DNA from: Synechococcus sp.
GTDB lineage: Bacteria; Cyanobacteriota; Cyanobacteriia; PCC-6307; Cyanobiaceae
DNA length: 64,000 bases
Direction: 5' to 3'
Assembly: GCA_047284725.1 (NCBI GenBank)
Contig: JBJBEO010000001.1
Span: 1,752,203 to 1,816,202 of the forward strand
The position numbers were made by a program, and so were the translations under genes. The notes beneath the pieces were generated by a model. That model was not told where the DNA came from, did no database searches, and was given only the letters and a program-made list of their open reading frames with translations. This document shows, one piece after another, positions 1 to 21,343 of the stretch (positions within the stretch are counted from its first letter, which is position 1; each line of letters begins with the position of its first letter).

Positions 1-2
1 CA

Positions 3-878
3 GCAGGCGACCCAAGATATTTCACAGATGACCCAGAAATACCTTGGATCACAGTAGGAGAACTAACAAAGGATGAAGAGAAATACCTAGAAAGAACAAA
101 GACATTTTTAACAGAAGAAGGAAAGGAAAGGAGCCGATTAATCAATGAGAAAACATTGCTACTGACCAATAGCGGAGCCACACTTGGAGTGCCAAAGATT
201 ACATTGATATCAGGCTGCATCAATGACGGCTCAGTAGCCCTTGAAGGCCTAGACGAACCACTTAAATCATATCTATACTATGTACTCAAATCCAAGACGC
301 AAGAACTAAGGAATATCAAGCAAGGCGCAGCTCAGCCAAATCTGAACACAACTATCGTAAAAAATATCCGCTTTTCATGCCCAGACGACAAGGAAGGCCA
401 GACAGAAGCAATCAACAAAATCGAAACGCTTTTTGAGTTGGCCGACTTGATTGAAAAGCAAATTGTTCAAGCCAAATCACAAATTGATGCAATAAGGAAT
501 TCGGTTTTAGACAAAGCCTTCCGCGGCGAGCTTGTTCCCCAAGACCCAAACGATGAGCCTGCCTCAGTACTGCTGGAACGAATCAAAGCCCTGCGCGAAA
601 CCGAAGCAGCAGCCAAAAAAACAGCCAAGCGGGGTAGGAAGAAGAAGGCTGCAGCCGCTCAGCTCGTCATTCCAGAAGGAATTGCCGACAACCACCTCGC
701 CAAGGTGCTTGAAGAGTGCGGAGCCTTAAGCGAGCGAGCCTTGCTTGCTGCTTCGGAGCTTGAGCCTGGGGTGTTTCAGCTGCAGCTCAGCAAGGAGCTC
801 GGTGCCGGTGGGCTCAAGCAAGTTGATGTTGATGGCGAAGCTGCCTATGCGGATGCAAGCTGGGAGGAGGAGGGATGA
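3..878 (+). CDS. hsdS: Type I restriction-modification specificity subunit S (5'-partial)
   Basis: Frame is open from position 3 (IPWITVGELT... TRD-like). Contains QGAAQPNLN and the conserved C-terminal DKAFRGELVPQDPNDEPASVLLERIK. Confidence 0.92.
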   Translation, partial: AGDPRYFTDDPEIPWITVGELTKDEEKYLERTKTFLTEEGKERSRLINEKTLLLTNSGATLGVPKITLISGCINDGSVALEGLDEPLKSYLYYVLKSKTQELRNIKQGAAQPNLNTTIVKNIRFSCPDDKEGQTEAINKIETLFELADLIEKQIVQAKSQIDAIRNSVLDKAFRGELVPQDPNDEPASVLLERIKALRETEAAAKKTAKRGRKKKAAAAQLVIPEGIADNHLAKVLEECGALSERALLAASELEPGVFQLQLSKELGAGGLKQVDVDGEAAYADASWEEEG

Positions 879-1816
879 GCGACCTCAACGCAGTGCCTGA
901 GATCCCCAAGTTCCATCAATTCATGCGGCCCCTACTCGAAGTGCTGCAAGAACAAGGAGAGCTGTCACGCAACGACGCCATCGAGGCTGTTGTGCGAAAA
1001 GTGGGCCTAAGTGAAGAACAGATGGCTGTTAGCCAAGAAAGCAATGGGAAAAGCCTGGCTCGCGGACGAATCGGCTGGGCTTCCTCATATCTCAGAGTTG
1101 CTGGTGCTCTCATAGGTCCGAAGCGCGCTTACTTCGCCTTAGGGCCTAACGCCGGGGCACTCTTGGCACTTGGGCGGCCAATCACACGCGCAGATCTAAC
1201 TGGGTTTAAGGAGTGGCAAGAACATCAGGCCGCCAAACAGGCCAAGAGTCAATCGACACCTGACAGCACGAGCGACATCAACACAGAAGACAGCACTCCT
1301 GAAGATCTGATCGAAGCAGGCGTCAAGCAGATCAAGGAGCAGTTGGTCTCTGACCTACTGGATCAGATGAAAGAGATGGATCCTCACGACTTTGAAGGGC
1401 TTGTCTTGGACGTACTCGCTGCCATGGGCTACGGCGGTGGTTCCAGGCAAGCCATGCAAGGGGTGCCGCGCGGACCTGACGGTGGCATCGACGGCAAGAT
1501 CAACGAAGACAAGCTCGGCCTGGATCAGATTTATATGCAGGCGAAGCGCTATTCGGAGAACTCAGTCTCCAGCGAGAAGGTGCAGGCCTTCGTTGGAGCC
1601 ATGACCTCAGGCGGTTGCCGAAAAGGAGTCTTCGTCACCACAAGCAAATTCACTGCTGATGCCGTCCGCTTCGCCAACAGCATTCGCGATCCACGTCTTG
1701 TTCTCGTCGATGGAGACAAGCTTGCCAGCTTGATGATTCAGCACGGGGTTGGCATCCAAAACAAAGAAATCAAAATTCCCAAGATTGATCTCGACTTCTT
1801 TAGTGGTGGGGATTAG
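875..1816 (+). CDS. mrr: Mrr-family type IV restriction endonuclease
   Basis: Mrr N-terminal IPKFHQFMRPLL...RIGWASSYL and catalytic DGGIDG...QAKRY...GVFVTTSKF. Overlaps the hsdS stop (ATGA). Confidence 0.93.
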   Translation: MSDLNAVPEIPKFHQFMRPLLEVLQEQGELSRNDAIEAVVRKVGLSEEQMAVSQESNGKSLARGRIGWASSYLRVAGALIGPKRAYFALGPNAGALLALGRPITRADLTGFKEWQEHQAAKQAKSQSTPDSTSDINTEDSTPEDLIEAGVKQIKEQLVSDLLDQMKEMDPHDFEGLVLDVLAAMGYGGGSRQAMQGVPRGPDGGIDGKINEDKLGLDQIYMQAKRYSENSVSSEKVQAFVGAMTSGGCRKGVFVTTSKFTADAVRFANSIRDPRLVLVDGDKLASLMIQHGVGIQNKEIKIPKIDLDFFSGGD

Positions 1817-1822
1817 TGAAAA

Positions 1823-2102
1823 TCACTCCCCCGCCTGAATCTCCCGCACCACCTCATCGATCTGATCGCTCAGATCGATTTCTCCGTTCTGCCCCGCCAG
1901 CTCCGCAAAACGGCGCCCCTACGGCAACAACCGGCTCTGCGCTGATCCCACGGCTGCATTAAAGCTCTTGTTCAAGCGAGTGATGTTGTTGCCGATGACG
2001 TTGAACTTATCGATTAAGGTTGAGAAGCGCTTGTGCAGCTCCACCGTCTGCGCCTGAAATTCATCGATGTTTTTGGCGATCTCCACCTGATCGATCGGCA
2101 TG
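1823..2102 (-). pseudogene. rmuC: RmuC-like protein, C-terminal remnant with in-frame stop
   Basis: Reads ELHKRFSTLIDKFNVIGNNITRLNKSFNAAVGSAQSRLLP*GRRFAEL...IQAGE*, which resembles the RmuC C-terminus. TAG at 1919-1921; N-terminal part absent. Confidence 0.65.
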
Positions 2103-2394
2103 GTGAAATCGACTGGGATCATGAAGCGCTCAGAAGTGGCGATCGGAACCACACAATCAATAGATAGATGCGATCAAAACAGCAACAATCACCTACAAGA
2201 AATGGTTCAACTTGATCTCGAGACGGAGTTCTTAGCCAAGCCAAAATACAAAGTGCTTAGAAGCTTCTCCAGACCGCATAACCATCCATGGGAGAAGTGG
2301 CAATCCGCCGGAATCCTTGCTAAGAATGGAGTGCTGCTTTAGAGGCAGCAAGCCATTGGCAGCTTATGCAGCAAAAGATCATCTTGCCGCAGCT

Positions 2395-2422
2395 TCTGCA
2401 GACCGCCTAAATACTGTTAGAT
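2395..2422 (+). other. attI-like / cassette 5' recombination junction (GCCTAAATACTG^TTAGAT)
   Basis: GTTAGAT (2416-2422) fits GTTRRRY and is the exact reverse complement of the attC inverse core ATCTAAC at 4721-4727. Confidence 0.6.
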
Positions 2423-4786
2423 TCTCCTCAGGGACCTCACATGGAATCAAAAGATTTACACGGATTTGCCTCAGATAGACCAATTACAAAAGTAGAAGAT
2501 GACTTGTTAGGTCGTTCAGGTTTTTCCACCGACTTGGCAGATGCGATGGCAAGTTGGCATGGAAACGATAGTTTGGTAGTAGCCTTACATGGTGACTGGG
2601 GGGCAGGAAAATCTTCAATTAAAAATATGGCTCTATCTCGGCTAGAGGCAATTACTGAAGACAAACCGGATATCATTCAGTTTTCTCCATGGGAGTGGGC
2701 TGCGCAAGATAAAATAACCGCTTCCTTTTTTCAAGAAATATCAAAATCAATAGGTCGAAAAGATAAAAGCAAATCAGGGAAAAAATTAGCGGCCACCCTT
2801 AAAAAGTATGGTCGTTATCTAAATACGGGCGAGACGGTAGTATCAGGTCTTTCTAGGGCACTCCCTACACTGTTCATTCTTGCAACACTTGTTGGAGTTG
2901 GCGGAAACTTTTCCAACGAAGCATGGGTCAACAACGCTAGCACCCTTATGCTACTTGTTTTAGCTTGTTTGGCTGCAATATTGAAGTGGGGGAAAGGTTT
3001 TCTTGAGAAGTTAAGTGGTAATGTTGAAGCAACTGCAAAGGAAAAAGAGCAGAGTTTGAGCGATATAAGACAGGAGTTAACGGCTTTGTTGCTAAAGCGA
3101 AAAGCCCCCTTGATCGTAGTAATGGATGACTTAGATAGGCTGACATCTTCTCAATTGAGGATGGTTTTTCAGCTTATAAAAGCAAATTTAGAATTCCCGA
3201 ATGTAGTATTCCTTCTTCTATTTCAACGAGGTCTAGTAGAAGATAAAATGAACGATGGGATGCAACTGGGTCGGGATTATTTAGAAAAAATAATCCAAGT
3301 GCCTTTTGATATTCCTCAGATAGAAACGACACGACTTCACAGCCTATTATTCAACAAGCTAGACAAAATCATCGAACAAGATAAATCAGCGACAGATATG
3401 TTTGATTCTGGCCGGTGGGGAAACATATTTCACGGCTCCCTGAACGCATACTTTGACAACTTGAGAAGCGTCTATAGGTATACCTCAACTTTATCATTCC
3501 ACTTTACATTACTTAAAGGTAAAAGTGCTTTTGAGGTCAATCCTGTAGATCTAATTGCGATTGAGTGTCTAAGAGTATTTGAGCCAGATGTTTATAAGGA
3601 AATCGCACGTTCGAAAGAAATATTCACCAAAAATGGATCGGATAGATATGGGAGAAGTGAGGATTCTACAGCTGCTTTAATCAATGGCATCTTGGATAAA
3701 GCAACTCCTGATAAACGAGAGGCTGTAAAAGAAATGGTGGAGCAACTATTTCCAACAATTGAATGGGCCCTAGGTGGGACTCAATATTCTGGAGATTTTG
3801 CCAGCACATGGTTAAGAGAGATGCGTGTTTGCCACCCCTCTAATTTTGACAAATACTTCCAATTTTCCATTCCAAGCGGCGAACTTTCAAACTCAGACTT
3901 ACAGGAAATGCTTAGTCTAACTGCCGATTCTGATAGATTTTCTTCATTTATCTTGTCGCTTAAAGAACGTGGCATTCTAAAAAATGCTCTTTCACAGTTT
4001 GAATCATTTACAGATGAAATTCCTTTAGAAAATGGGCAGGCTTACATTAAGGGGATTTTAGATATTGGTGACTGTTTCGATCATGAATCAACAGGTTTTA
4101 CGATGTTCAGCTCTAATACGCATGCTGTTAGGCTTGTTGTCTGGTTCCTACGACGTATTGATGACATTGAAGAAAGAGGGAAGCTGTTGCTAGAATGCTT
4201 CAAAGCATCGAATGGGATATCTATTGTCGAACATATACTGTTAGGTGATGAAATTCGGAGAGAAAAGTCGGATTCGGACCAAATTCTACGGGATGGAGAA
4301 TTTGAACAGCTTCAAGCAGAATTTGTACAAAAATTGGATAAAATGTCTAAAAATTCGCCCTCTGACCTACTTTCTCATGAGCACTTGGTATCCTTTTTGT
4401 ATAGGTGGAAGCGCTGGGGTGATGAGAACAAAGTTATAGATTGGTTGAAACTTCAGACCCAAACTACCGAAGGCTGTATAGCTTTATTGAAAAAATTTGC
4501 AGGTAAATCATCTTCTCAGGCCATGAGTGATTACGTAGTAAAAATTACGACCTATATCAAACTTGAAAATATTGAAAACTTTCTAGAGATTGCACCAATC
4601 CAAGAAAAAATACGTAATCTTGACGAGACTAAGCTTGATTCCGAAGCACAAGAAGCATTGAAAGCTTTCCAAGATGCATTGCAAAAAAGAGCAAAAGGAA
4701 TTGCCAATGATTGGTAGTGAATCTAACAAGTTGCTGCACTCGGAAAAATTACTCGCTACGCTCCTAATTTTCCGGTGAGCAAGGCG
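2417..4786 (+). mobile_element. Integron gene cassette carrying a KAP NTPase
   Basis: Starts TTAGAT 24 bp before the ATG, holds a single AT-rich ORF and ends in an attC with complementary core sites. Confidence 0.82.
2441..4717 (+). CDS. KAP-family P-loop NTPase (758 aa, two TM helices)
   Basis: DRPI...DDLLGR, Walker A GDWGAGKSS, FSPWEW, TM hairpin, Walker B IVVMDDLDR, YLEKIIQVPF. Confidence 0.93.
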   Translation: MESKDLHGFASDRPITKVEDDLLGRSGFSTDLADAMASWHGNDSLVVALHGDWGAGKSSIKNMALSRLEAITEDKPDIIQFSPWEWAAQDKITASFFQEISKSIGRKDKSKSGKKLAATLKKYGRYLNTGETVVSGLSRALPTLFILATLVGVGGNFSNEAWVNNASTLMLLVLACLAAILKWGKGFLEKLSGNVEATAKEKEQSLSDIRQELTALLLKRKAPLIVVMDDLDRLTSSQLRMVFQLIKANLEFPNVVFLLLFQRGLVEDKMNDGMQLGRDYLEKIIQVPFDIPQIETTRLHSLLFNKLDKIIEQDKSATDMFDSGRWGNIFHGSLNAYFDNLRSVYRYTSTLSFHFTLLKGKSAFEVNPVDLIAIECLRVFEPDVYKEIARSKEIFTKNGSDRYGRSEDSTAALINGILDKATPDKREAVKEMVEQLFPTIEWALGGTQYSGDFASTWLREMRVCHPSNFDKYFQFSIPSGELSNSDLQEMLSLTADSDRFSSFILSLKERGILKNALSQFESFTDEIPLENGQAYIKGILDIGDCFDHESTGFTMFSSNTHAVRLVVWFLRRIDDIEERGKLLLECFKASNGISIVEHILLGDEIRREKSDSDQILRDGEFEQLQAEFVQKLDKMSKNSPSDLLSHEHLVSFLYRWKRWGDENKVIDWLKLQTQTTEGCIALLKKFAGKSSSQAMSDYVVKITTYIKLENIENFLEIAPIQEKIRNLDETKLDSEAQEALKAFQDALQKRAKGIANDW

Positions 4787-4792
4787 TTACCG
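4721..4792 (+). repeat. attC site (72 bp)
   Basis: R'' ATCTAAC, 5-nt spacer, L'' GCTGCAC, inner arms CGGAAAAATTA / TAATTTTCCG, L' GTGAGC, 5-nt spacer, R' GTT. Extrahelical bases present; begins 4 bp after the ORF stop. Confidence 0.88.
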
Positions 4793-5722
4793 CAAACATT
4801 CCCGATGCAACTGTAGATACTGCTCCTGTAGCCGCGAAAATGGCTCAATAACATTGGCTGATGCTATCCCCCAACACTGCAACGCATCACCCGCAGCTTC
4901 GTGCTGCCAAATCAACTGACCATCAGGATCAAAACTGATCCAATGTCGATCGAATAATTTATCAACATGGGGAGACAGCAGCAATCCATTCGCGCCATCA
5001 AGGCGCTCCTGATGATCACAATCACGCCAGGGCTTGATGTGGCTGGCAATCAGGAATTCTTGCCTGGCCAAAGCCGTCACGCGACAAATCGGCTCCTGCT
5101 CAGCCACACGCTGCCGAAACAGGCCTTGCCCCATCCTCGCTTTCGTTAAGGCATCACGCTCGGTGGCGCTTGGAACCTGCTGCAGTTCCTGCACATCCTT
5201 CAACAGCGCATCAACAGAGGTTTGCTCTTCCGCCAGCACCAACAGATGCACTCTGATGGCGGGATCAGCATGGTCTTCGATCAACTGGATGAGGAGATGA
5301 CCCAACACCTCATCCAGCCCTGCGAGATACACCCCCTGATTGCCTCGCCCTGAGGTTGGTCTGATCGGGCTATGGCGCTCCGGCAAAAGGGGTTGAATCA
5401 AATCAAAGTGATCCAACGGCACCAAAGGCTGTTGCAGCGGTTGCCAAGCCACCCGTACCAGCCAGCCGTCATCTCCCCAGTACTCAACGGTGCTGCCAAA
5501 CTCAGGTGGCTTTGGCGCCGTCTCAGCCGCCGATTCCACCACACCAATCCGGCCGATCTTGGCGTAGGCATCACTGAACACCACATCACCCACCTGGCAG
5601 CGCGCCAGGTTGTCGTAGCTGACGTTCTTAGCGCCATTGGCATTCTGTTTAGGCGGCTAGATGGTGCCCCCTTCCGTTTCTTGCCGAACGGTCTGCTTTT
5701 GATTCACCCACCAGAACGCCAC
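4787..5722 (-). pseudogene. EVE/PUA-like domain + HNH endonuclease (putative modification-dependent REase) with in-frame stop
   Basis: Reads MAFWWVNQKQT...GGTI*PPKQNANGAKNVSYDNL...GDVVFS (TAG at 5657-5659). C-terminal ARMGQGLFR, ASHIKPW, NGLLLSPHVDKLFDRHWISF. Confidence 0.8.
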
Positions 5723-5775
5723 GACCAGACCAGGCCTCTCGATTCACCCTTAGCAAGCTGCCTGAGAGACCACAC

Positions 5776-6780
5776 CTAGTAATTCTGTTTGCCTGGAATC
5801 ACCCCCCTCACACCACCCCGCGGGTCAGGCGTGTCGCCGTTGCGCCTCGGGATCAGATGCCAGTGGGCATGCATCACCGTCTGCCCGGCCGACGCACCAC
5901 TATTGAGGCCGATGTTGAAGCCGCTGATGGAGGCATCCGCCAGCTCAAGCTCCTGCAGTCGCTGCTTCAGCAATGCAGCGACTGCATTCCACTCGGGCTG
6001 ATGAAGGTCCATTCCATCCGCCACATGCCGGCAGGGAATCACCAGGCTGTGGCCTTCAGTGACGGGATAGGCATCGGCGATGCAGACCGCCAGTTCGTTC
6101 CTGAGCAGAACCCGATCTGAAGACTGCAGATCACAGAAGAGGCATCCCTCCTGCCTGTGGCCATAGCTCTGCAGCACCCCGCGGAAGTCGGTGCTGTCGC
6201 TGTCCCTCTTGCCGGCGTTGCAACGGAAGCAGAGCGCCTGAAAGTTGGAGATGTCATCGGAACCAGCAAGGTTCTTCGGGATGATGTGATCCACCTCCAG
6301 CGCCGCCTGGTGCTCATGGGCACCGCAGCATTCACAGCGGCCCTTCGCGCGGGTGAACACCCGGTAGCGGATCGATCCGCTGATGGCCGTGCGATGGCGT
6401 GAGCGATGCGCGAAGACCTCATCACCGCGCTTCAGGCGAAAGGCATCGAGCTTCTGCCGGCAAAGCTGCAGCAGTGCATCCCGCTCCTGATCGCTGAGGT
6501 CGTCGGCCCCGACCAGGCTTTAGACGCCTCCGGCATGGGTCGTGATGCCGTTGGAGGTCAGCACCCGCCCCACCATCCGTTTCACCCGTTCGGAGTAGTA
6601 CTCGATCTGGGAGCTGTCCTCGCCGAGGATCCTGCGCGCGATGTCGTCTGCGGGTGCAGGGCTGCGTCTGCCGAGCAGCTCCATCAACATCAACGGCTGG
6701 TAGATGTGCGACATGCACATCCGCTGATTGATGTAAGCGGCGAGATACTCAAAGGCAGTTGATCGTGCAGGCTCCATCAT
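5776..6780 (-). pseudogene. HNH endonuclease-HIT hydrolase fusion with in-frame stop
   Basis: N-terminal MSHIYQPLML...IEYYSERVKRMVGRVL is in frame with CECCG..EVDHIIP..CFRCN (HNH) and HAHWHLIPR (HIT). TAA at 6520-6522. Confidence 0.8.
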
Positions 6781-6888
6781 TCGGGGGAGATGCGATGCAT
6801 GCCAGATCCCTGAACTGGACGTGGCGTGATGGCCTGGCAAGCAACAATCTGAATGAACTGATGAGCGACAACACCGCCTGGACGACCT

Positions 6889-6933
6889 AATGTGGTCACA
6901 TTGGCGAAGATAGACATGGCAGATGTAGTCACA
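6889..6933. promoter_or_regulatory. Probable TA autoregulatory operator (two TGTRGTCACA boxes)
   Basis: Inverted repeat AATGTG-GT-CACATT at 6889-6902 and TGTAGTCACA at 6924-6933, at the start of the antitoxin gene. Confidence 0.55.
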
Positions 6934-7218
6934 AGCCAGGTGTCGGTGCGGGATCTCAAGTCCCACCTCTCCGAATGGCTCGGCCGGGTGCAGGCCGGTG
7001 AGGAGGTGGAAGTCACCTCCCATCGCAAACCCATCGCCCGCATCACCGCTGTGAAGCCTGCGGACTCGGAGATCAGCAACCCGATGCAACAAGCGATTGA
7101 GGCAGGGTTGATCAGCTGGAATGGACAGAAGCCAGTGATGCCTCCACCGGTGAAGCTCAATGATGGAGGGCCACTGATCAGTGACCTCGTGATTGAGGGG
7201 CGTGAATCAACGCAGTGA
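6916..7218 (+). CDS. Phd/YefM-family antitoxin
   Basis: VSVRDLKSHLSEWLGRVQAGEEVEVTSHRKPIARI; overlaps the toxin start (GTGA). The start could be the GTG near 6940. Confidence 0.9.
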   Translation: MADVVTSQVSVRDLKSHLSEWLGRVQAGEEVEVTSHRKPIARITAVKPADSEISNPMQQAIEAGLISWNGQKPVMPPPVKLNDGGPLISDLVIEGRESTQ

Positions 7219-7640
7219 TTCTTTTCTGCGACACATCCGCACTTCTCAAACTGTTCATCAGCGAGGAAGACAGCGACGTCATGCTCAGGCAACACGCTGA
7301 CTGCACAGGCATCGCGGTGTGCAGGATCACCTGGGCGGAATCGATGGCCGCATTCGCGCAGCGCAGTCGGGTCAAGGGTGCAAACCAAACTGGACTGACA
7401 CAGGCCAGATCAATGTTCAAGCAGGCCTGGTCTGACTTTGCGATCGCTGAAATCACGCAACCACTGGTCGAAAAAGCCGGGGTATATGCCGAGGCATTCG
7501 CGCTGCGTGGCTATGACAGCGTTCAACTGGCAGCAGCTCACAATCTGCATGAACAGTTCAAGCTTCCGCTGACATTTGCCTGCTACGACCGTCGACTGAA
7601 TCAGGCCGCCCAGCTGCTTCAACTTGAGATATTGCCATGA
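7215..7640 (+). CDS. vapC: VapC/PIN-domain toxin
   Basis: FCDTSALLKL...E...LRGYDSVQLAAA...CYDRRL. Confidence 0.92.
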   Translation: MILFCDTSALLKLFISEEDSDVMLRQHADCTGIAVCRITWAESMAAFAQRSRVKGANQTGLTQARSMFKQAWSDFAIAEITQPLVEKAGVYAEAFALRGYDSVQLAAAHNLHEQFKLPLTFACYDRRLNQAAQLLQLEILP

Positions 7641-7776
7641 CCACCACTCCTGCCTCCACAGGCGGGATGGAGTGTCTGGTGAATCGTTGTTGCGCCAGAA
7701 ACAATCCAGCCACAAGCAACCAAAGCCTTCAGATCGTTGAGAAGCAGCGAAGAGCGCATGGATGAGCCAGAACGAC

Positions 7777-8145
7777 TCAACCGATCCCCAGCACCTGTTT
7801 CAGCATCGCCACCAACTCCTTCTTGCTGAAACTCTCCAAGGGTGGTGGCGGCGGTTGAACGCCTTCTGCCTCCAGGGCTTTGCAGAGCTCAAGCTTTTTG
7901 AGTTTGGAAAACCCCTTGATCCCGTGCTGTTTGCACAGCTGCCTCAACGTGGCCACGGTCTGCTGCTGAAAACGCCCTTGGCCAAGCAACGCTTTCGCAT
8001 CAATCTGCCCCGGCAAGACCGGAGCAGGCGATGCCACCTGAGCCGTTGCCGCCTTCAGCTCCTGATCGATCTCCCGCAGCGCCCTGGCATCCGAGGCAGC
8101 CACCGCTTTGAGGTTGGCCCGCAGGGCATCAGCGAGTTGGCCCAT
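7777..8145 (-). CDS. Hypothetical protein with SAP/Rho-N-like helix-extension-helix motifs
   Basis: TVATLRQLCKQHGIKGFSKLKKLELCKAL and SFSKKELVAML. Overlaps the upstream gene. Confidence 0.7.
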   Translation of the reverse strand: MGQLADALRANLKAVAASDARALREIDQELKAATAQVASPAPVLPGQIDAKALLGQGRFQQQTVATLRQLCKQHGIKGFSKLKKLELCKALEAEGVQPPPPPLESFSKKELVAMLKQVLGIG

Positions 8146-8614
8146 CGCCGGTCTCCTCGAGATGAGATTGAACGGTCTGCTGTTTCTCCACCAGCACCTG
8201 CAGCTGCTGCTTGGTGGAGGTCCAGCGATTGATGAACCGGATCACAGCCTGAATCAACCGGCCGATGAAGCCAGCGCCCTGCATCGAACGGCGGCCTTTC
8301 TGATAAGCCCCGAACTCATGCACCAGATCGTCACCGGCATCTTCCAGTTCGCCCACCACATTGGTGACGATCTCCAGCATTTCGTAGGCCTCCTGGCGCA
8401 CGGAGGCTTCCCGGGTCGCGATCGCTCGCAACCGGGTCTCCAGCTGCTGCATCGCCTCACGGTTCCGCTCCGCCTTGCCGCGATACACACCCCGGCTCAC
8501 CATCAGGCCCCGGTAGCACCGGCGCAGCTCAAGGTACGCCGCATCCAGCTCTTCGCGTTCAAGCGTGTCGGGCTTGGCGGGGAAATCCCCCGTCGGCGGG
8601 AAGGCTGTGGTCAT
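8129..8614 (-). CDS. Hypothetical coiled-coil protein
   Basis: Helical, charged 161-aa ORF with host-like codon usage, overlapping 7777-8145. Confidence 0.7.
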   Translation of the reverse strand: MTTAFPPTGDFPAKPDTLEREELDAAYLELRRCYRGLMVSRGVYRGKAERNREAMQQLETRLRAIATREASVRQEAYEMLEIVTNVVGELEDAGDDLVHEFGAYQKGRRSMQGAGFIGRLIQAVIRFINRWTSTKQQLQVLVEKQQTVQSHLEETGDGPTR

Positions 8615-8717
8615 CGGCCACGGACATCGGTTCTCTGAGCATGCAGCAAGGCAGGCGCCAATCTCCCCCTCTTCAAAGGATGTTCACCATGGGCTGGTGG
8701 GTGCCCATCCGGCGCGC

Positions 8718-9515
8718 TCACTGCACCGATCCCCCTTGATTCACCTGGAGAAAACAGTGCTCCGGCAGGCCTGATCCACGGATGCGGAAGCTGAGATCAT
8801 CCACCTTGCGCAGGCGATCCAGAATTTTTTCCGCCTGAGAACGATTACTGATCAAGGTTTTCGTGGAATGGGCAGCACCATTCCTCAACAGATTCACCGA
8901 GTTCAGTTTCTCGAACTGCGATTTGGAGGAATAGCCCAGATCGTCGTAGAGACGATGTTCTGCGCAGAGATTCAATAAATCCTTGAAATACAGGTAATGA
9001 CAGGGCGAATAGTTCAGCCCCTGATCGCGATCCCTGTGCAGCTGTTCCAGCCCTTTGTCGCCAATCTGGCCTTCCACCACCTCATGGCCCAGTTTGTACT
9101 CCACAAAGCGGGACAACAGCGTTTCCAGCATCACCACCTGCGAGAACACATACACCCGAAAGGCATTGCCATTGAAGTCGGATAAGCCCAGCAATCCCGT
9201 GACCCGCAGCCGATCGCGGATGAACACAAACGGCTTGTCGGCACGAAGAATCACATCCAAGGCCACTTCGATCGGCGTCTGGCCCGGGAGCATGTCTTCC
9301 GCCAGCACGGGAAAGCACTGGGGCCGATCAGCCCGCGCCTGGCGATACCAGTAGGTGGCGATCAATCCGCCGGGATGCTCATTGGCCACCGGCAACACAT
9401 CAAAATCATGGGCCGCCATGATCGCTTGGGCCGCCTGTGCATCCACATCCGTGCCGGCCATCCTGATCACCTCCCGCGGCACTGCAAGCATCTGGGCGTT
9501 CAGAGGCAGATACAT
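8718..9515 (-). CDS. CBS-pair + HEPN-like protein
   Basis: CBS-like AIMAAHDFDVLPV and VTGLLGLSDFN. C-terminal YLYFKDLLNL...LNSVNLLRNGAAH (Rx4H). Confidence 0.6.
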   Translation of the reverse strand: MYLPLNAQMLAVPREVIRMAGTDVDAQAAQAIMAAHDFDVLPVANEHPGGLIATYWYRQARADRPQCFPVLAEDMLPGQTPIEVALDVILRADKPFVFIRDRLRVTGLLGLSDFNGNAFRVYVFSQVVMLETLLSRFVEYKLGHEVVEGQIGDKGLEQLHRDRDQGLNYSPCHYLYFKDLLNLCAEHRLYDDLGYSSKSQFEKLNSVNLLRNGAAHSTKTLISNRSQAEKILDRLRKVDDLSFRIRGSGLPEHCFLQVNQGGSVQ

Positions 9516-9767
9516 CAGGGTTGAGGGAATGCAATCATCAAAGGCAACCTGTCAATCCCCCGCCTGAACTCGCCCCGAGGCTGCAGACGTCGACAGTGGG
9601 AGACCAGAGGTGCCGCTGAATGTGCACATGGGCTTTGATCCTTCACCCACAGATCCCGACACCCTGCTTCTGCGCCTTGTGGATGTGGAAGCAGATCACA
9701 CCCATGCCCATCACGAGCGTTAACAGCAACGACAGCACTGCAGGCAACTTCAGTCCCTGGGATCTGG

Positions 9768-10652
9768 ATGGCGTCCAACCCTGATCCAATCAACGGCCCC
9801 TGCATCCTCGGCATCGATGCGGCCTGGACGGCCCATCAGCCCAGCGGCATCGCCCTGGTGCAGCGCACCCAGGCCGGCTGGAGCTGTCAGGCCGTCGCCC
9901 CCAGCTATGAAGCGTTCATCAACCAGGCCTCAGGCCAGGCCTGGGATCCCCAGCAGAAGGCCACAGGCAGCAGACCCAACCCAGCAGCACTGCTGCAGGC
10001 CTCTCAACAGATCGCCAATGCGGAGGTCGGCTGCGTGTCGGTCGACATGCCCCTGGCCACCACACCGATCACCAGCCGACGGGCGGCTGACACCGACATC
10101 TCCAGGCGCTTCGGGACCCGGGGCTGCGCGGTGCACAGCCCCTCAGCCGAACGCCCCGGCGCCTTGGCCGATCGGCTGCGCGCCGACTTCGCCGCCCTCG
10201 GCGTCCCCCTGCACACCAAAGGCAGCGATCAGACAACCCCGGCTCTGATCGAGTGCTATCCCCATGTCGCCCTGCTGGCCTTGCTCAACTGCTCCTACCG
10301 CGTGCCCTACAAGGTGAGCCGCTCAGCCCAGTACTGGAGAGACGAGCAGCTGACGCGCCGTGAGCGGATCGCACGCTTGCTCAAACAATTCCGCGCCATC
10401 AAAGACGGCCTCGATGCACACATCCGCGGCATTCCAGAGTTCATCCCCGAGCCCTCCGAGGTGACGACACTGGCGTCGCTCAAGTCGGTGGAAGACAGAC
10501 TCGATGCCCTGATCTGCGCCTGGGTCGGCATCGAGCATCTCGAAGGGAGAACCGTTGGCCTGGGGGATCACACAGCCGCGATCTGGGTGCCGCAGATCCT
10601 GATCACCCCTGACCAACCCCTAACAGCCGGTGGCATCAGCTCCTCGCCTTGA
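9768..10652 (+). CDS. DUF429 family predicted RNase H-fold nuclease
   Basis: ILGIDAAWT, VDMPL, IECYPH, EDRLDALICAW. Confidence 0.85.
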   Translation: MASNPDPINGPCILGIDAAWTAHQPSGIALVQRTQAGWSCQAVAPSYEAFINQASGQAWDPQQKATGSRPNPAALLQASQQIANAEVGCVSVDMPLATTPITSRRAADTDISRRFGTRGCAVHSPSAERPGALADRLRADFAALGVPLHTKGSDQTTPALIECYPHVALLALLNCSYRVPYKVSRSAQYWRDEQLTRRERIARLLKQFRAIKDGLDAHIRGIPEFIPEPSEVTTLASLKSVEDRLDALICAWVGIEHLEGRTVGLGDHTAAIWVPQILITPDQPLTAGGISSSP

Positions 10653-10836
10653 GCAGAAGAGCCGATTGCATACGTCGTTCCTCGTGGGAGAGGAAGTCAC
10701 CCCACATGCTGATCAGAAAGCTCAACGTTTTGAGGGCCTTGACCTGAGCGTCCGACCCTGGCGCGGTGGACTTGAAGTCCATGAACATCCTGTCGGCGAT
10801 GGTCTGCTGCTCCCGGCAGCGGGAATCAATGGTCAT
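10636..10836 (-). CDS. Small hypothetical protein
   Basis: 66-aa ORF starting 2 bp after the upstream gene. Confidence 0.6.
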   Translation of the reverse strand: MTIDSRCREQQTIADRMFMDFKSTAPGSDAQVKALKTLSFLISMWGDFLSHEERRMQSALLLKARS

Positions 10837-10838
10837 GC

Positions 10839-11072
10839 TCAGGCCTCAGGAACCACAACGCCTTCGCTGCCTGAGAAGCGCACAGACCAGAGCTCCTCGT
10901 TCGTCACCGCGCCGTTCTCATCCAGCAGTTCGGGATGAACGGTTCTGAGCCCGGTGCGGTCACTCGGCGCCTGGGCCGAGGACGCCGAGGTCAGGCGCAT
11001 CATCCGAAAGGCCTGCAGCAGCAGGCAGGCGAGACCAACGGCGTAAGCCAGCGGGAAAAGACCTGAGAGCAT
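10839..11072 (-). CDS. DUF2973-like small membrane protein
   Basis: N-terminal TM helix followed by DRTG..TVHPELLDENG..TNEEL. Confidence 0.7.
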   Translation of the reverse strand: MLSGLFPLAYAVGLACLLLQAFRMMRLTSASSAQAPSDRTGLRTVHPELLDENGAVTNEELWSVRFSGSEGVVVPEA

Positions 11073-11127
11073 CGATCACTCGGCCGAATATGAAGAAACG
11101 TTAACCACTGTTGGCGCCCATTGCGGA

Positions 11128-12150
11128 TCAGGACCGCACGCCCTCCACCACGGCCAACGAGCTGGCGGGTTGCGTCCAGGTCTTGCAGAAGGTCCACCCC
11201 GACGCTTCCAGCAGCTCGGCGAATTCGGATTCCGTCCGTTCGCGGCCCGTCAGCACCGACATCATGTGGATGTCGAACATCTTGGAAAAGTCGGACACGC
11301 CCAGGCCGGGAACGATGTATTCAGCGATCAGCACGCGCGCGCCAGGAGCGGATGCGGCGTGGGCGTTCTTGAGAATCGTGCAACAGGCCTGATCGTCCCA
11401 GTCATGCAGGATGTGCTTGAGCAGATAGGCATCCGCCCGGGGCACCTGAGCGAACATGTCGCCGGCCTGATAGGTGATGCGATCCGACACCCCGAAGCGG
11501 CTCGCCAGCAAAGCCTCTGGATTCTCCAGTGACGCCGGCATTTCCAGGATGGTGCCTGTCAGATGCTCAGTGGCCTTGAGGAGGCTGCACAACAGATGGC
11601 CAAAGCCGCCACCGATATCGCAGATGCTGCTGATGGCTTTGAGATCGAAGTGCTGCAACGCCGTGATCACTTCACCGGTTTCCCGGGTGGAGTATCCGGT
11701 CATCGCGTCATTGAAAATCTGCCCCACCTCCGCGTCCGTTGCGATCAGATCAAACAAGGGGCGACCGAACTCCCGCACGATGCCGTCGTCACCACCCTCC
11801 TTGACGATCGCCGGCAGATGTCTCCAGGCTCGATACATCGTCTCGCCTTCTTCCCAGAGGCAGGAGGAGCGCAGGCTGCCGGGGTGATCCGAGGCAAACA
11901 ACGCCCCTGTGGACGACACGCAGAAGCTCCGATCCGCTCGTTCCTCCAGCAGTCCGATGCTGGCTAACGCCCTCAGCAACCGGTAGGTGTTGGTGGAATC
12001 GAGCGCCAGCGTCTCCGCCAGCTGATCGGCACTGTGGGTGGTCGATCCGATCGCATCAAACACGCCCAGCTTGACGCCGGCGTGAAGAATCTGGCTGCGC
12101 CACCGTCCGGTCATCAGATCGAGGGCGTGCTGAAGATCGGAGGAGGCCAT
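11128..12150 (-). CDS. SAM-dependent O-methyltransferase (dimerisation + MT domain)
   Basis: DIGGGFG, GDMF, LKHILHDWDD, GRERT. Confidence 0.92.
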   Translation of the reverse strand: MASSDLQHALDLMTGRWRSQILHAGVKLGVFDAIGSTTHSADQLAETLALDSTNTYRLLRALASIGLLEERADRSFCVSSTGALFASDHPGSLRSSCLWEEGETMYRAWRHLPAIVKEGGDDGIVREFGRPLFDLIATDAEVGQIFNDAMTGYSTRETGEVITALQHFDLKAISSICDIGGGFGHLLCSLLKATEHLTGTILEMPASLENPEALLASRFGVSDRITYQAGDMFAQVPRADAYLLKHILHDWDDQACCTILKNAHAASAPGARVLIAEYIVPGLGVSDFSKMFDIHMMSVLTGRERTESEFAELLEASGWTFCKTWTQPASSLAVVEGVRS

Positions 12151-12214
12151 CACTCACCAGTCAGAGGAGATGCGTGCTGTCTAGCCATGCACAGCAACGG
12201 CCACAACAACGCCC

Positions 12215-14395
12215 TCACCCCTTGATCTCGATCGCGGTGGGGAAGGGGATCACGATCTCCGCTGCCGCCAGCTCCCGCAGCAGCTCCCGGTTGATCCAGT
12301 CGATCGAATCCTTGAACGCGGTGAAGCTGAGCCCCTCGGAGAACAGGTGGCATTTGAAGTCGTAGCTGAACTCGGCGATCGCCAGCAGCCGGCAGGCCTT
12401 CAGCTCGAATCCGGGTGTGCGATCAATGATGCCGCGCACCAGAGCCGGGATCGCCGCCAGCTGCTGATCGGTGGTGTCGTACGACACCGAGAGCACGAAG
12501 TGGCAGAGATCCACCCGATAGATCAGCTGATTGAACGCCAGCGTCAGCGACTCCTGCAGATCGATGTAATCGCGCCAGTTCACCACGTGAATCAGGCCGA
12601 TGCAGCGCAGCCGCTGCGGCGCGCCCGGCTCCAGCTCCACGGTGAGGCAGGGGTTGATCAGGTCGGGCCGCTCGTCGGCGTAGCGGCGCGCCAGGGCCAG
12701 CAGATCGGCGATCTGATCGGGGCTGAACGGAGACGCGTCATCCAGCTCCAGGTTCAGCTCCAGGCCCTGCAGCTGCGAGGCGCCGGCGACGGGGGCATGG
12801 CGCGAGAGGTTGTTGACGATGCAGTCTTCCGCCACCGCGTTCGGGATCGTGATCCGGCCGGTGACCGTTTCGATCTCCACCGAGCGCAGGCCGATCTTGG
12901 TGAGGAAACCCTGCTTGTCGCCGATCTCGCAGAACTCCCCCACCCGCAGCGGCCGGTCGGTCTGCAGCGACAGACCGGCGAACAGGTTGCTGAGCAGCTT
13001 CGAGGCGCCGAGACCGATCGCCAGGCCGGGCACGGTGGAGAGGGCGAGCACCAGGGTGGGCGACAGGCCCAGCTGCAGCAGCAGCTTGTAGATCAGGGCC
13101 ACGGCCACCACCCCCGACACGATCCGGCAGGTGGGCATCACCCGGTTGCTGGTGCGCGACAGCCGCCAGACGTCCTGACTGCCCGAGAGGCGCACCAGGC
13201 CCTCCGACACCGAGCGCCCCAACGCCTCGAAGAACAGAAACACCAGCAGCACGAACAGGCTGAAGTAGGCGACTTCAAACAGCACCGTGAGCACCACCAG
13301 GGGCAGGCCGGTGTAGTTGAGGTAGTCGTCCACGAACAACTCGGTGGCCTTGGTGGCGATCACCATCGGCAGCACCAGCACGAACCGCGTCCAGGCCAGC
13401 GAATCACGCAGCCAGACCTGCGCCGCATCCCCGGAGTCCGTACGGAAGGAGCGGATCAGCTGCCGGAACAGCAGCGCCAGCAGCACCAGCAGCAGACCAA
13501 TCGCCAGCACCGACAGCGCCAGCCGGAACAGGGTCTGGCCGAACAGCACCTCCGTCTCCAGGCCGGCGCGCAGCCCGGCCGGAAGGTTCAGGTACCACTT
13601 GGGCGGGAACAGGCGGCCGGGGGTGTGGATGAAGTCGGCATAGAAAGCGCGGGTGACGAAGGCCTGATCGCCGAGATCCTCCACCTGCCGGCTCACCTGG
13701 GCATACATGGCCGAGGCGTTCGCCACCGTGGCCGCCGAGAAATAGAAGTTGCTGTTGGCCGCATCCTCCGCCAGCTGGCTGGTGAGCACGATCGAGGACC
13801 CCGGCAGCGTCCACGACTGGGTGTCTTTGGAGCGTTCGTCATTCAGCGCCTTCATGGCGGCGGCATCGGGAATGGTGATCACCTGCCGGCTGCTGTTGAA
13901 GATGAAATCCAGCACATGCTTGAGCTGAATCGCCGCTTCGTCCTTGAGGTAGGAGCGCACGCCGAGTGGGAAGAGCGATCCATCCAGCGACGCCACCGCC
14001 GCATCGAAGAGCACCTCCACCTCCGCTATCTCGGCCCGGGCCTGGCGGTTCCAGAACAGGCCGCGGTCGTTGAGGTGCGACGCCTCCACGTCCTCGATCA
14101 GCTGCCCCACATCGGCCATCACGGCGTAGAAGTTGAGCAGGGTGTCCCGGGGTGAGTCCCCCACCACCTGCCCCAGGGGCGTGTGCCGCCAGAGATCGGC
14201 GCGACGCTCCAGTTCGGCATGGAACGGCTGCTGCTCCAGCGGAATCAGCGGCTCGGCACTGGCATAGCGCTGATCCAGGAGTTGATGGTCTCGGTTCTGC
14301 GGACCGGCCCAGAGCGGCAGCCCGGAGAGCAGGCAAACGCTCAGGAGACCGGCCAGAAACGCAACGATCCGCTTGCTTCTGCGCACGCCCGCCAT
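12215..14395 (-). CDS. mscS: Large MscS-family mechanosensitive channel
   Basis: SPRDTL, multiple TM helices, GLAIGLGA...NLFAG...DRPLRVGEFC...IGLRS...IPN, ending IPFPT. Confidence 0.9.
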   Translation of the reverse strand: MAGVRRSKRIVAFLAGLLSVCLLSGLPLWAGPQNRDHQLLDQRYASAEPLIPLEQQPFHAELERRADLWRHTPLGQVVGDSPRDTLLNFYAVMADVGQLIEDVEASHLNDRGLFWNRQARAEIAEVEVLFDAAVASLDGSLFPLGVRSYLKDEAAIQLKHVLDFIFNSSRQVITIPDAAAMKALNDERSKDTQSWTLPGSSIVLTSQLAEDAANSNFYFSAATVANASAMYAQVSRQVEDLGDQAFVTRAFYADFIHTPGRLFPPKWYLNLPAGLRAGLETEVLFGQTLFRLALSVLAIGLLLVLLALLFRQLIRSFRTDSGDAAQVWLRDSLAWTRFVLVLPMVIATKATELFVDDYLNYTGLPLVVLTVLFEVAYFSLFVLLVFLFFEALGRSVSEGLVRLSGSQDVWRLSRTSNRVMPTCRIVSGVVAVALIYKLLLQLGLSPTLVLALSTVPGLAIGLGASKLLSNLFAGLSLQTDRPLRVGEFCEIGDKQGFLTKIGLRSVEIETVTGRITIPNAVAEDCIVNNLSRHAPVAGASQLQGLELNLELDDASPFSPDQIADLLALARRYADERPDLINPCLTVELEPGAPQRLRCIGLIHVVNWRDYIDLQESLTLAFNQLIYRVDLCHFVLSVSYDTTDQQLAAIPALVRGIIDRTPGFELKACRLLAIAEFSYDFKCHLFSEGLSFTAFKDSIDWINRELLRELAAAEIVIPFPTAIEIKG

Positions 14396-14445
14396 CGCTC
14401 TATGAATGGACTGACGCTAGCCAGAGAGGGCGCAACCTCCACGCC

Positions 14446-15000
14446 GTGGCCGCCGTGCACCACCACCCCACAGCCCTGGCGGCGTCCTTCTGGCTGCTGC
14501 CAGATCCGGACGCCGCAGCCGCCCTCAGGCATCTGTCGGCCGCAGCCTGCCGCACGCTGACGGCCTGCACCCTGCCGCCCCACATCACCCTGGTCAGCGA
14601 TCGCCTCCACACGCCGGCCTCCGCCATCGATCGTCTCCGCCGGCTCGCCGAGCAGCGCAGCCCCGTTCTGCTCAGTCCCTCCGGGATCACCGCCGCCGAC
14701 CGGTTCACCCAGAGCCTGATCCTGCGCTTCACGGCCGAGGCCGAACGGGTTCTGCAGGCCTGGGTGCAACCCCTGCGCGACACCGCACCAGCGAAAGCTC
14801 ACGGCCGGTTCGATCCCCACCTGAGCCTGCTCTACAGCCAGGCCTCCCTGAAGCAGAGGCAGGCCCTGGCCGCCCGGCTTCAGGCACCGGAGGCCCCCCT
14901 GCGGTTTGATCAGGTGAGTGTGGTGAGCCATCCAGCGGCGATCAGCTCCCCGGCCGACATCGCCGCCGTCTCAACCCTGGCGCAGCTACCGCTCTCCTGA
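14446..15000 (+). CDS. 2H phosphoesterase (cyclic phosphodiesterase-like)
   Basis: Two HxT/S motifs, PPHITL and DPHLSL. Start uncertain. Confidence 0.75.
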   Translation: MAAVHHHPTALAASFWLLPDPDAAAALRHLSAAACRTLTACTLPPHITLVSDRLHTPASAIDRLRRLAEQRSPVLLSPSGITAADRFTQSLILRFTAEAERVLQAWVQPLRDTAPAKAHGRFDPHLSLLYSQASLKQRQALAARLQAPEAPLRFDQVSVVSHPAAISSPADIAAVSTLAQLPLS

Positions 15001-15008
15001 CGGGATAC

Positions 15009-15743
15009 TCAGGTGCGCGGGGCCTCCCCAGGCAGCAACGGAAAGGGATTGGTCTGCAGCAGCGGGCGAATGCCGAGCTGCTCGCGCCACGCGAGCAGGG
15101 GGGTCTGCCAGCCCTCCTCCCAGCGCTGGGCCAGCAGGGGGCTGGCGGTGGCGCCGAGGTTGAGGCCGTAGGCGATCGCCACCCCCACATCAACGCCTGC
15201 CTCGCCACTGGCTTCGCAATCGCCCTCGGGATTGCCATCCCCATCACTGACGCGGTGGACCAGATCGGCCGCGATCAGCAGGGCGCTGCCGGGCCAGCGC
15301 AGCTGTTCGGTGGTCAGTCCGTTAGCGGCCGCCTCGCCGGCCAGGGTGATCGGCAAGCCGGCGATCACGTGCCAGAGGTCGTGGGTGTGGCGGATGCGCA
15401 TCTGTAGATAGGCGTCATCCCCTCCGATCGCATCCGGCAGCTGCGGCGAGGGCAGCTCCCCCAGCCCCCTGGGATGTCATGAATCGGCCGTAGACATGGC
15501 CCAGAGATCCGGCCGGCATCGCCACCAGTTCTGGCAGGGAGGGCCACTGCCCCCAGTAGCGCTCCCGCACCAGCGGGCCGAGGCCGGATCGGCTTTGAGG
15601 CGATCGCGGGCAGCCTGGGCCACCTCCGTGGCGTAGGTGGCATTCAGAAGATCGAACGCGTGATCGAGATCAACCGGATCACTGCAGAGCGCGGCCAGGT
15701 CCACGGCCAGGCGCTTCAGCAGGGTGCGGTTGGTCGATGCCAC
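15009..15743 (-). pseudogene. Coq4-family protein, frameshifted
   Basis: LVAMPAGSLGHVY and YLQMRIRHTHDLWHVIAG..GEAA lie in different frames. Indels near 15580 and 15467. Confidence 0.75.
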
Positions 15744-15768
15744 AGCAGGCGCTCCTGAGTCGCCCTGA

Positions 15769-15954
15769 TCATGCAACAACCGTGCAGCTGGCTGCAGCCT
15801 CGGCGATCAACGGCTCCGACAACTGCCACAACGCTGCGACCTGGACCGGATCCGCCCCGGCTGCGCTGGTCTCCACCGCCAGACCGATGCCGGAGCTGGC
15901 GCCGGTGATCAACAGCCGCCGGGGACGGAACGCAGCGGTCGAGGAGGAGGCCAT
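15769..15954 (-). pseudogene. Internally deleted SDR oxidoreductase remnant
   Basis: RLLITGASSGIGL is joined directly to a C-terminal GADPVQVAALWQLSEPLI, matching both ends of the SDR at 25490-26488. Confidence 0.7.
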
Positions 15955-16036
15955 CGGCAGGTCGCGGCAGCCGCCAGACGCGGAGCGTCACGTTAGGCAG
16001 CACGGCACGATTGGGTCACTCCGCTGCCGCCCCCTG

Positions 16037-21291: not shown

Positions 21292-21343
21292 CGATCTCAA
21301 GAACAACCCCGAAAAAGCCTAAGGACCACAGCCGGGCAGTGAT

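Follow-up and report, generated by a model that had tools for sequence, protein, structure and literature searches.

A PifA-like KAP NTPase gene in a Synechococcus chromosome is carried by an apparent integron cassette that probably inserted alone

In a 64-kb stretch of DNA from Synechococcus sp. (64,000 nucleotides, all of which were analyzed and which we call the window), a gene encoding a PifA-like NTPase of the KAP family appears to reside in a lone integron gene cassette of foreign origin. By every feature tested except our own class 1 covariance models, the segment 2417-4786 is, on the evidence of its sequence, an integron gene cassette. Most likely, this cassette came from the marine gammaproteobacterial cassette pool and entered the chromosome by an IntI-type crossover into a non-att GTT just past the stop codon of an HNH endonuclease gene, resulting in a SALIN, that is, a single attC site with an open reading frame (ORF) and no integrase nearby. 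The cassette and its junctions have the following layout:

2416-2422, plus strand: left junction GTTAGAT, where G is target DNA and TTAGAT represents the first six cassette bases
2417-4786, plus strand: gene cassette proper, 2,370 bp, GC 39.6%, boundaries from comparison with other copies
24 nucleotides between the left junction G and the KAP ORF, plus strand: cassette leader
2441-4717, plus strand: KAP/PifA-like NTPase ORF, 758 amino acids, intact, TAG stop at 4715-4717
4721-4792, plus strand: attC site, 72 nucleotides
4786-4792, plus strand: right junction GTTACCG, where G is the last cassette base and TTACCG is target DNA

The KAP ORF is AT-rich against its surroundings, with a GC content of 39.3% vs 60.4% for the window, and a GC content at third codon positions (GC3) of 0.335 vs a mean of 0.703 (standard deviation 0.095, minimum 0.498) for 37 other ORFs of the window. 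It begins 24 nucleotides past the G of GTTAGAT, a heptamer with a single occurrence in the whole window. Three nucleotides separate the TAG stop from the sequence ATCTAAC (4721-4727), which starts at the fourth base and is the exact reverse complement of GTTAGAT, and the right junction GTTACCG contains the triplet TTA (4787-4789), the stop codon of the minus-strand HNH_2 ORF 4787-5593. These features were all noticed in a preliminary description of this DNA, which had reported an AT-rich ORF 24 bp after G^TTAGAT, a 72-bp attC with extrahelical bases starting four bp past the stop, complementary end sequences and a non-consensus downstream core overlapping the HNH stop codon, and each of them is present at the coordinates given here. 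By itself, the complementarity of the end 7-mers is weak evidence, being found by chance in about 5% of ORFs: when we counted 7-mers located just past a stop codon that had a complement within 40 nucleotides of the start, 6 of the 103 mechanically called ORFs of at least 150 amino acids in the window had such a pair, the KAP ORF included. Given the weakness of the 7-mer pair as a single feature, it is the comparative evidence that carries the case.

The KAP protein has hundreds of close relatives. Those from named organisms share 81-88% identity with it and belong to Vibrio parahaemolyticus, V. cholerae, V. vulnificus, V. harveyi, V. breoganii, Pseudoalteromonas, Aeromonas, Shewanella and Idiomarina. 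When a single genome was scanned for each species, 20 loci (L001-L020) encoding relatives were obtained, none of them cyanobacterial. Comparison of window positions 1-8000 with the 20 loci by blastn confined the homology to 2399-4789, with the following matches:

L012: window 2416-4788, 81.6% nucleotide identity
L005: window 2415-4782, 80.9% nucleotide identity
L003: window 2416-4730, 79.6% nucleotide identity
L008, Marinomonas profundimaris D104: window 2415-3420, 93.5% nucleotide identity
L004, a second contig of Marinomonas profundimaris D104: window 3418-4789, 94.3% nucleotide identity
L019: to window position 4789, 77.2% nucleotide identity

On the left, the homology ends at 2415/2416 in four loci (L012, L005, L008 and L003) and, on the right, at 4788/4789 in three (L012, L004 and L019); past the G|TT on both sides, the flanks of the copies are unrelated. 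The match to L006 reaches position 2399, at 83% identity, an extension that we read as chance. Furthermore, GTTRRRY precedes the ATG by 24-25 nucleotides in 7 of the 9 loci that have at least 73% protein identity and a 5' end, in line with the earlier expectation that homologues would retain the flanking core sites; the exceptions are L002, with GCTAGAT, and L014, with none. The closest protein (P0001, 97% identity) was called with an 11-residue extension, MAALDSPQGPH, in which LDSPQGPH is the translated cassette leader. The residues ahead of the leader differ from those of the window (stop-I-L), with the divergence falling exactly one codon before TTA, so that the left flank of this copy is unlike that of the window from the junction outward. 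The cassette is also found in Marinicella, Shewanella, Desulfobulbaceae and other genomes. Compared in this way, the ORF and its attC form a discrete mobile unit, with the same ends in different contexts and with boundaries that can be placed exactly, and the original identification of the segment as an integron cassette is thereby substantiated.

The cassette is of foreign origin, as the preliminary description had proposed and as shown jointly by the low GC3 (0.335 vs 0.70 in the host), the protein identity of 81-88% to Vibrio, Pseudoalteromonas, Aeromonas and Shewanella, and the best nucleotide match, at 93.5-94.3%, to Marinomonas profundimaris D104. In L012, L005 and L008, a hairpin site of 57-77 nucleotides that ends in G|TTAGAT or G|TTGGAT directly precedes the cassette and is the attC of a preceding cassette; L012 has three attCs, the third located 330 bp downstream. 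No upstream attC was seen for the window copy, L001, L003, L006 or L007. In a Flavobacteriales bin (L017), a KAP homologue with 53% identity lies within an array of 12 near-identical attCs of 80-83 nucleotides (1693-21635), with no integrase in the 22 kb of that locus, and none of the 82 ORFs of 270-450 amino acids in L001-L020 reaches the integron-integrase cut-off. Other copies of the KAP gene adjoin genes for defense or resistance as well: an anti-phage dCTP deaminase and two insertion sequence elements on a Vibrio nigripulchritudo plasmid (L033, 8381-15592), a DRT2 reverse transcriptase and a tyrosine recombinase in L014 (1004-2335), and a CARB-type beta-lactamase in L013 (16922-17812).

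The predicted attC site consists of the following parts:

4721-4727: R'', ATCTAAC
4728-4732: spacer, AAGTT
4733-4739: L'', GCTGCAC
4740-4774: stem and loop, 35 nucleotides
4775-4780: L', GTGAGC
4781-4785: spacer, AAGGC
4786-4792: hybrid R', GTTACCG

Folded as single-stranded DNA, the bottom strand reaches -11.7 kcal/mol (z = -2.73, with 1 of 200 shuffles equally good) and the top strand -10.5 kcal/mol (z = -2.0). The GCT(G)CAC of L'' pairs with the GTGAGC of L', leaving the extra base in L'', and altogether three bases are bulged in the R''/L'' arm (G4736, T4740 and one A of 4744-4748), all kept in 5 of the 5 copies of the KAP cassette. The attCs of aadA1, VIM-2, aacA4, dfrA14 and dfrA17 show the same geometry of boxes and bulges. 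In the attC consensus, the inverse core R'' is RYYYAAC and the core R' is GTTRRRY; the window R', GTTACCG, retains only the GTT(A) of this consensus, as would be expected of a hybrid R' after insertion at a non-att site. When the five KAP-cassette attCs (window, L004, L005, L012 and L019) were aligned, 94.4% of the cells of an 18-pair stem were paired, and 7 of the 18 pairs had changed on both sides. The covariation score was 0.348, compared with 0.170 +/- 0.032 in shuffles, none of which (0 of 500) reached this value, and with 0.017-0.168 in slid controls. The R''/R' helix is 71% paired across the five sites, a low value that comes as no surprise, since all but one of the seven R' bases are contributed by the downstream DNA.

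MAFFT alignment of mixed attC types displaced the L' boxes; a reciprocal covariance model, R3, was built from the five KAP-cassette attCs only. Against a set of class 1 attCs harvested from plasmids (aadA1, aadA2, aadA22, aadA5, aacA4, VIM-2, OXA-4, dfrA14, dfrA17 and lnu(F)), the five best matches of R3 in 95 kb were known attCs with exact ends, namely, VIM-2 (48.5 bits, E = 8.4e-12), dfrA14 (1.1e-3), aadA1 (6e-3), aadA22 (9.7e-3) and lnu(F) (0.049). In the same 95 kb, aadA5 received E = 0.74, three sites of L017 fell at E = 0.22-1.3, false or wrong-strand matches appeared from rank 7 on, and aacA4, OXA-4, dfrA17 on the plus strand and the site upstream of the cassette in L008 were missed. 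In a further 93 kb, all 9 matches at E<=1 were located at cassette ends, including 5 of the 5 attCs of the estX-psp-aadA2-cmlA1-aadA1 array. Held-out attCs of KAP genes were scored by R3 at 48.2 bits (L011), 28.3 bits (L032) and 26.8 bits (L002). With filters off, the only convincing site in the 64-kb window is 4721-4792 (87.4 bits). The second-best match (43547-43613; 16.2 bits, E = 0.056) lies 39 kb away within a gene for a short-chain dehydrogenase, at a GC content of 72%, and was taken as a false positive rather than a second attC, given its location in a coding gene of high GC. A heuristic scan combining R'' (no more than a single mismatch tolerated), GTT and hairpin energy recovered the site together with 8 other places in the window and was set aside as too unspecific.

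The family to which this attC belongs became clear from plasmids. In a blastn search of window positions 2380-4830 against 72,556 plasmids, 633 records matched, three of which carry the KAP gene (81-82% nucleotide identity, starting from window position 2416), and among those listed there were twelve matches to the attC alone (window 4723-4793, 92.8-97%). Two of the latter were inspected in detail. One is the attC of an estX cassette in the Escherichia coli IncHI2 plasmid pEGY1-MCR-1 (NZ_CP023143.1; L030, 3997-4067), located 1 kb from intI1 in an array with the order intI1-estX-psp-aadA2-cmlA1-aadA1, to which the window attC is 92.8% identical over 69 nucleotides. The other, with 97% identity, is a cassette attC behind a hypothetical gene of a Salinivibrio kushneri megaplasmid, where another attC follows 0.9 kb onward. 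In both cases, the identity spans the region from the AAC of R'' to GTTA and then ends, and the cargo genes are unrelated. Separately, the blaVIM-2 attC (L023, 7205-7276; 72 nucleotides, R3 score 48.5 bits) is strikingly close to the subfamily of KAP attCs comprising L012, L005 and L019, with which it has the common center CCGCTGCGCTCC.

The surroundings of the cassette are of an altogether different provenance. The neighboring genes and the spacer are as follows:

3-878, plus strand: hsdS, type I restriction-modification specificity subunit, cut by the window start (Pfam Methylase_S, 6.2e-11; PADLOC Specificity_I, 4.7e-33)
875-1816, plus strand: Mrr-type (type IV) restriction endonuclease (Pfam Mrr_cat, 7.6e-35, and Mrr_N; PADLOC mREase_IV, 2.8e-68)
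1825-2152, minus strand: C-terminal fragment of RmuC (Pfam RmuC, 4e-06, profile positions 219-275 of 291), with an internal stop in the six-frame translation
2153-2415, no strand: non-coding spacer of 263 bp, GC 46%, with a 20-nucleotide direct repeat (2262-2281 and 2391-2410, 90% identical)
4787-5722, minus strand: HNH_2 endonuclease gene (Pfam HNH_2, 2.7e-11), with an in-frame stop at 5657-5659
5776-6360, minus strand: HNH-HIT fusion gene (Pfam HIT, 9.5e-17, and HNH, 1e-12; PADLOC ThsC-like HIT, 7.9e-11)

The best named homologues of the Mrr-type endonuclease come from Synechococcus sp. ROS8604 (88%), AH-736-M02 (84%), Synechococcus sp. CBW1006 (80%) and Cyanobium sp. PCC 7001 (76%), and those of the HNH_2 protein, with lengths of 311-312 amino acids, include Cyanobium sp. 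ATX 6E8 (74%) and other relatives with up to 93% identity. The homologies on the two sides (Mrr, 88% to Synechococcus; HNH, 74% to Cyanobium) indicate that both flanks of the cassette are picocyanobacterial, and the wider content of the window is cyanobacterial as well (orange carotenoid protein and its regulator FRP, a CAAD-domain protein, an ARC6-like protein, DUF3104). The C-terminus of the HNH_2 protein (...HRECLR) terminates where its closest homologues do, and therefore the stop codon adjoining the cassette is native. The read-through translation shows that the in-frame stop further upstream in this gene occupies a position where the aligned homologues have Trp, and accordingly the gene is either a predicted pseudogene or a source of a 268-amino-acid product initiated at an internal GTG. 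On the left, the N-terminal two thirds of RmuC are missing. The spacer, presumably the former 3' flank of the HNH gene, contains no attC-like match to R3 and no homology to any of the cassette loci; none of the 11 stop-to-stop fragments of 2060-2440 has a meaningful Pfam match at E<=1 that would betray a gene remnant, and when 1817-2440 was compared by blastn and tblastx with the right flank and with the window as a whole, nothing but short matches at the chance level emerged. Scans of the window for Rfam families and tRNAs found nothing.

The defense island suggested in the preliminary description is thus recognizable in the hsdS, Mrr, HNH_2 and HNH-HIT neighbors. This defense-like neighborhood may extend to about 10.6 kb; a DUF429 protein (9768-10652, plus strand) matches the PADLOC candidate defense family PDC-S44 (4.2e-29). 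The truncated RmuC and the broken HNH gene suggest that the restriction/defense neighborhood is decaying or rearranged. Apart from this neighborhood, positions 12000-21300 form a block of high GC content (65-72%, compared with 60% for the window) that encodes an MscS-type channel, a gamma-glutamyltranspeptidase, an Fe-alcohol dehydrogenase, an alpha/beta hydrolase and a cytochrome P450, and this block may be another acquired region.

A complete integron consists of an intI gene and an attI site beside one or more cassettes, and a CALIN comprises two or more attCs close together without an integrase. In the window, no intI gene was found among 74 ORFs, and R3, with its limited sensitivity for foreign attC types, finds a single attC, so that within the visible DNA the element fits a SALIN. 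The sequence of events that we consider most probable is the following. The cassette, derived from the pool that circulates among marine Gammaproteobacteria, would have arrived as one circle. An integron-integrase-type crossover would then have joined the G|TT of its attC to a GTT in ordinary, non-att DNA (an attG site), directly past the HNH stop codon in the restriction/defense neighborhood of a Synechococcus/Cyanobium-type chromosome. The gene for the integrase would lie elsewhere in the genome, or else the enzyme would have been provided in trans, and the outcome would be a lone attC without a nearby integrase. The attG sites described by Loot et al. (bioRxiv 10.1101/2022.09.11.507474) are genomic sites with a GWT consensus at which IntI inserts cassettes, producing SALINs. 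The inferred target, ...CTG|TTACCG... (GTT), fits this consensus. With respect to the original claim of an IntI-mediated insertion, the cassette boundaries at G|TT are in place, and the action of IntI itself is inferred.

Several observations weigh against the course of events outlined above. The covariation signal rests on only five sequences in two subfamilies. Two covariance models of class 1 attCs, R1 (five attCs: aadA1, aadA2, VIM-2, aacA4 and OXA-4) and R2 (12 rows; the R1 set with aadA5, lnu(F) and dfrA17 added), give no match at E<=10 to 4721-4792, even with filters off. Both models did recover held-out class 1 sites, both are dominated by the GC-rich center of the aadA type, and R2 is weak on true attCs, with dfrA14 at E = 0.05, only 5 of the 12 L017 attCs detected (E = 1.5-3.3), mis-bounded recovery of the L008 site and one partial false hit. 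We treat this miss as the result of an insensitive test rather than as counter-evidence. Hence, the check by covariance model that had been proposed early on came out divided, negative with R1 and R2 and positive with R3, which was derived from KAP attCs and finds known attCs with exact ends. R3, for its part, also misses some true attCs: among nine class 1 references, 5 reach E<0.05, and among the 12 sites of L017, 3 reach E<=5. Neither the 74 ORFs of the window nor the 11 fragments of 2060-2440 include a tyrosine recombinase or integrase, and only 2.4 kb are visible to the left of the cassette. No sigma-70-like promoter was found upstream of the KAP gene, where the region has 8 sites compared with 6.0 expected. 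Finally, the left flank is odd, being gene-free, repeat-containing and low in GC (46%) next to the truncated RmuC, and this anomaly implies that the locus was rearranged and that the original target is uncertain.

The anomalous left flank also speaks for an alternative that we regard as unlikely, namely, that the cassette is the last survivor of a resident integron or attC cluster, which it entered at attI or attC and whose integrase gene and neighboring sites were later deleted or decayed. The flank is rearranged, with a truncated, stop-containing RmuC and a 263-bp spacer harboring a 20-nucleotide repeat, and an intI gene or more attCs could lie just past the window edge, 2.4 kb to the left. 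A resident integron would not be out of place either: the preliminary description had considered integrons to be rarely reported in this lineage, a view that needs correction, given that Cury et al. 2016 (PMC4889954) list Cyanobacteria among the integron-encoding phyla and that a published tree (PMC3607928) includes the intI of a marine Synechococcus sp. However, neither R3 at E<=10 nor the heuristic scan detected a second attC near the cassette, the ORFs and fragments searched contain no integrase remnant, and at the right junction the cassette meets the native stop of a host gene whose C-terminus is intact, in keeping with insertion into ordinary DNA.

Far less probable, in our assessment, is a scenario in which no integron integrase took part and the DNA arrived, for instance, as a piece of a donor array taken up by transformation and joined by illegitimate recombination, with ends that would match the cassette boundaries by chance. 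The lack of a visible integrase and the frequency of chance 7-mer pairs (6 of 103) are compatible with such a route, but neither end is more than two bases away from the G|TT crossovers that are set by independent copies, and no remnant of a neighboring cassette or attC was carried along. An assembly chimera or a contaminated bin, in which the assembler joined a proteobacterial cassette to cyanobacterial DNA, might be imagined because the cassette is widespread in co-occurring marine bacteria and none of the 20 loci is cyanobacterial, but it is hardly credible with picocyanobacterial DNA on both flanks, joins that fall exactly at the recombination crossover and not within shared sequence, and no other examined copy carrying these flanks. 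Insertion of a single cassette at a non-att GTT by an integron integrase remains our preferred explanation.

The cargo of the cassette matches the Pfam domain KAP_NTPase (6.4e-40) and, over virtually its entire length (residues 8-745 on profile positions 4-717 of 720), the PADLOC profile of PifA (PDLC02361, 3.6e-85); in PADLOC, the matches to QatA and PDC-S20 are far weaker, and the NCBIfam profiles yield only QatA, below threshold (59.9 bits vs a cut-off of 600). Reading the translation, we recognized a Walker A motif (GDWGAGKSS), a Walker B motif (LIVVMDDLDR) and, between the two motifs, within the NTPase domain, two hydrophobic helices. In the AlphaFold model (mean predicted local distance difference test score, pLDDT, 74.8; predicted template modeling score, pTM, 0.48), these helices correspond to residues 137-151 and 161-183, and a P-loop core is followed by a long helical C-terminal region. 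No solved structure matches the protein in sequence, and a Foldseek search against the PDB returned nothing at E<=0.001, with only weak likenesses to STAND/AAA+ proteins (RdrA, 3.3e-3, TM-score 0.26; CED-4; ORC), so that the predicted structure adds nothing to the picture of a P-loop NTPase whose C-terminal region is helical. The F plasmid protein PifA excludes phage T7 and is thought to act at the membrane, and KAP NTPases have recently been shown to require the Walker B motif and the C-terminal region for defense, as reported in PMC8594841 and PMC13552941. By homology, the cassette would encode a candidate anti-phage, membrane-associated P-loop NTPase that aborts or excludes infection in the manner of PifA, and the anti-phage role proposed in the preliminary description is strengthened by the full-length PifA match.

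In the literature, we found no paper describing this cassette or a solo cassette in picocyanobacteria; supplements of preprints may list the cassette, and, in the main text of one preprint (10.1101/2024.07.02.601686), PifA, Pif and KAP do not occur. An attC model specific to Cyanobacteria exists (PMC8352920). A lone 2.4-kb cassette of marine proteobacterial type in a cyanobacterial chromosome would show that integron cassettes are able to move from one bacterial phylum to another. No upstream attC accompanies copies in the window, Colwellia, Thiomicrorhabdus, Neptuniibacter, a bin labelled Chlorobiaceae, and Shewanella and Vibrio plasmids. A broader notion, which we put forward with considerable reservation, is that marine picocyanobacteria are natural recipients of gammaproteobacterial integron cassettes at non-att GTT sites and that the PifA-like cassette is unusually prone to solo insertion. 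If this is the case, integron cassettes would serve as a cross-phylum shuttle for oceanic phage-defense genes, independent of resident integrons. The locus described here is a clean natural example, at base-pair resolution at both junctions, of a cassette that probably settled alone in the chromosome of a distant phylum, by a route that was demonstrated experimentally in E. coli. It links the cassette pool of marine Gammaproteobacteria, the attC type of clinical class 1 integrons and the defense islands of marine Synechococcus, which matter for the dynamics of cyanophages and their hosts, and it provides a concrete PifA-like candidate against cyanophages together with a concrete attC/target pair for recombination assays.

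Among known systems, the F plasmid PifA is the closest counterpart of the cargo, with which it shares the full-length PADLOC match, the KAP P-loop domain with inserted hydrophobic helices and the long helical C-terminal region; the protein of the window differs in that its identity to plasmid-borne relatives that do not belong to its cassette family is as low as about 23-29%. The attC resembles that of estX in its sequence (92.8% over 69 nucleotides), length class and geometry, and R3 scores the latter at 66.7 bits. The two differ in the first four bases of R'', which is accounted for by the match of these bases to the start of each cassette, and in their cargo, estX as opposed to a KAP NTPase; moreover, estX lies in a complete integron beside intI1. 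The KAP cassette of Marinomonas profundimaris D104 (L008 and L004), 93.5-94.3% identical in nucleotides, has the same leader and ends, with an attC that differs at four positions. Elsewhere (L008, L012 and L005), the KAP cassette follows the attC of another cassette, unlike the window copy, which, like L001, L003, L006 and L007, has no upstream attC. As in the defense cassettes that two preprints describe for sedentary chromosomal and mobile integrons (bioRxiv 10.1101/2024.07.02.601686 and 10.1101/2024.07.02.601719), a defense gene here takes the form of an integron cassette; the KAP cassette is large, unlike the streamlined systems emphasized in the abstract. Finally, in comparison with the SALINs at attG sites described by Loot et al., the host here is a picocyanobacterium (the main text of that paper does not contain the word cyanobacteria), the cargo is a 2.3-kb defense gene, and the insertion is deduced from comparison rather than observed. 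Nevertheless, the two have in common one ORF with one attC, no att site or integrase nearby, a G|TT crossover in ordinary DNA and a hybrid R' that is non-consensus on the target side.

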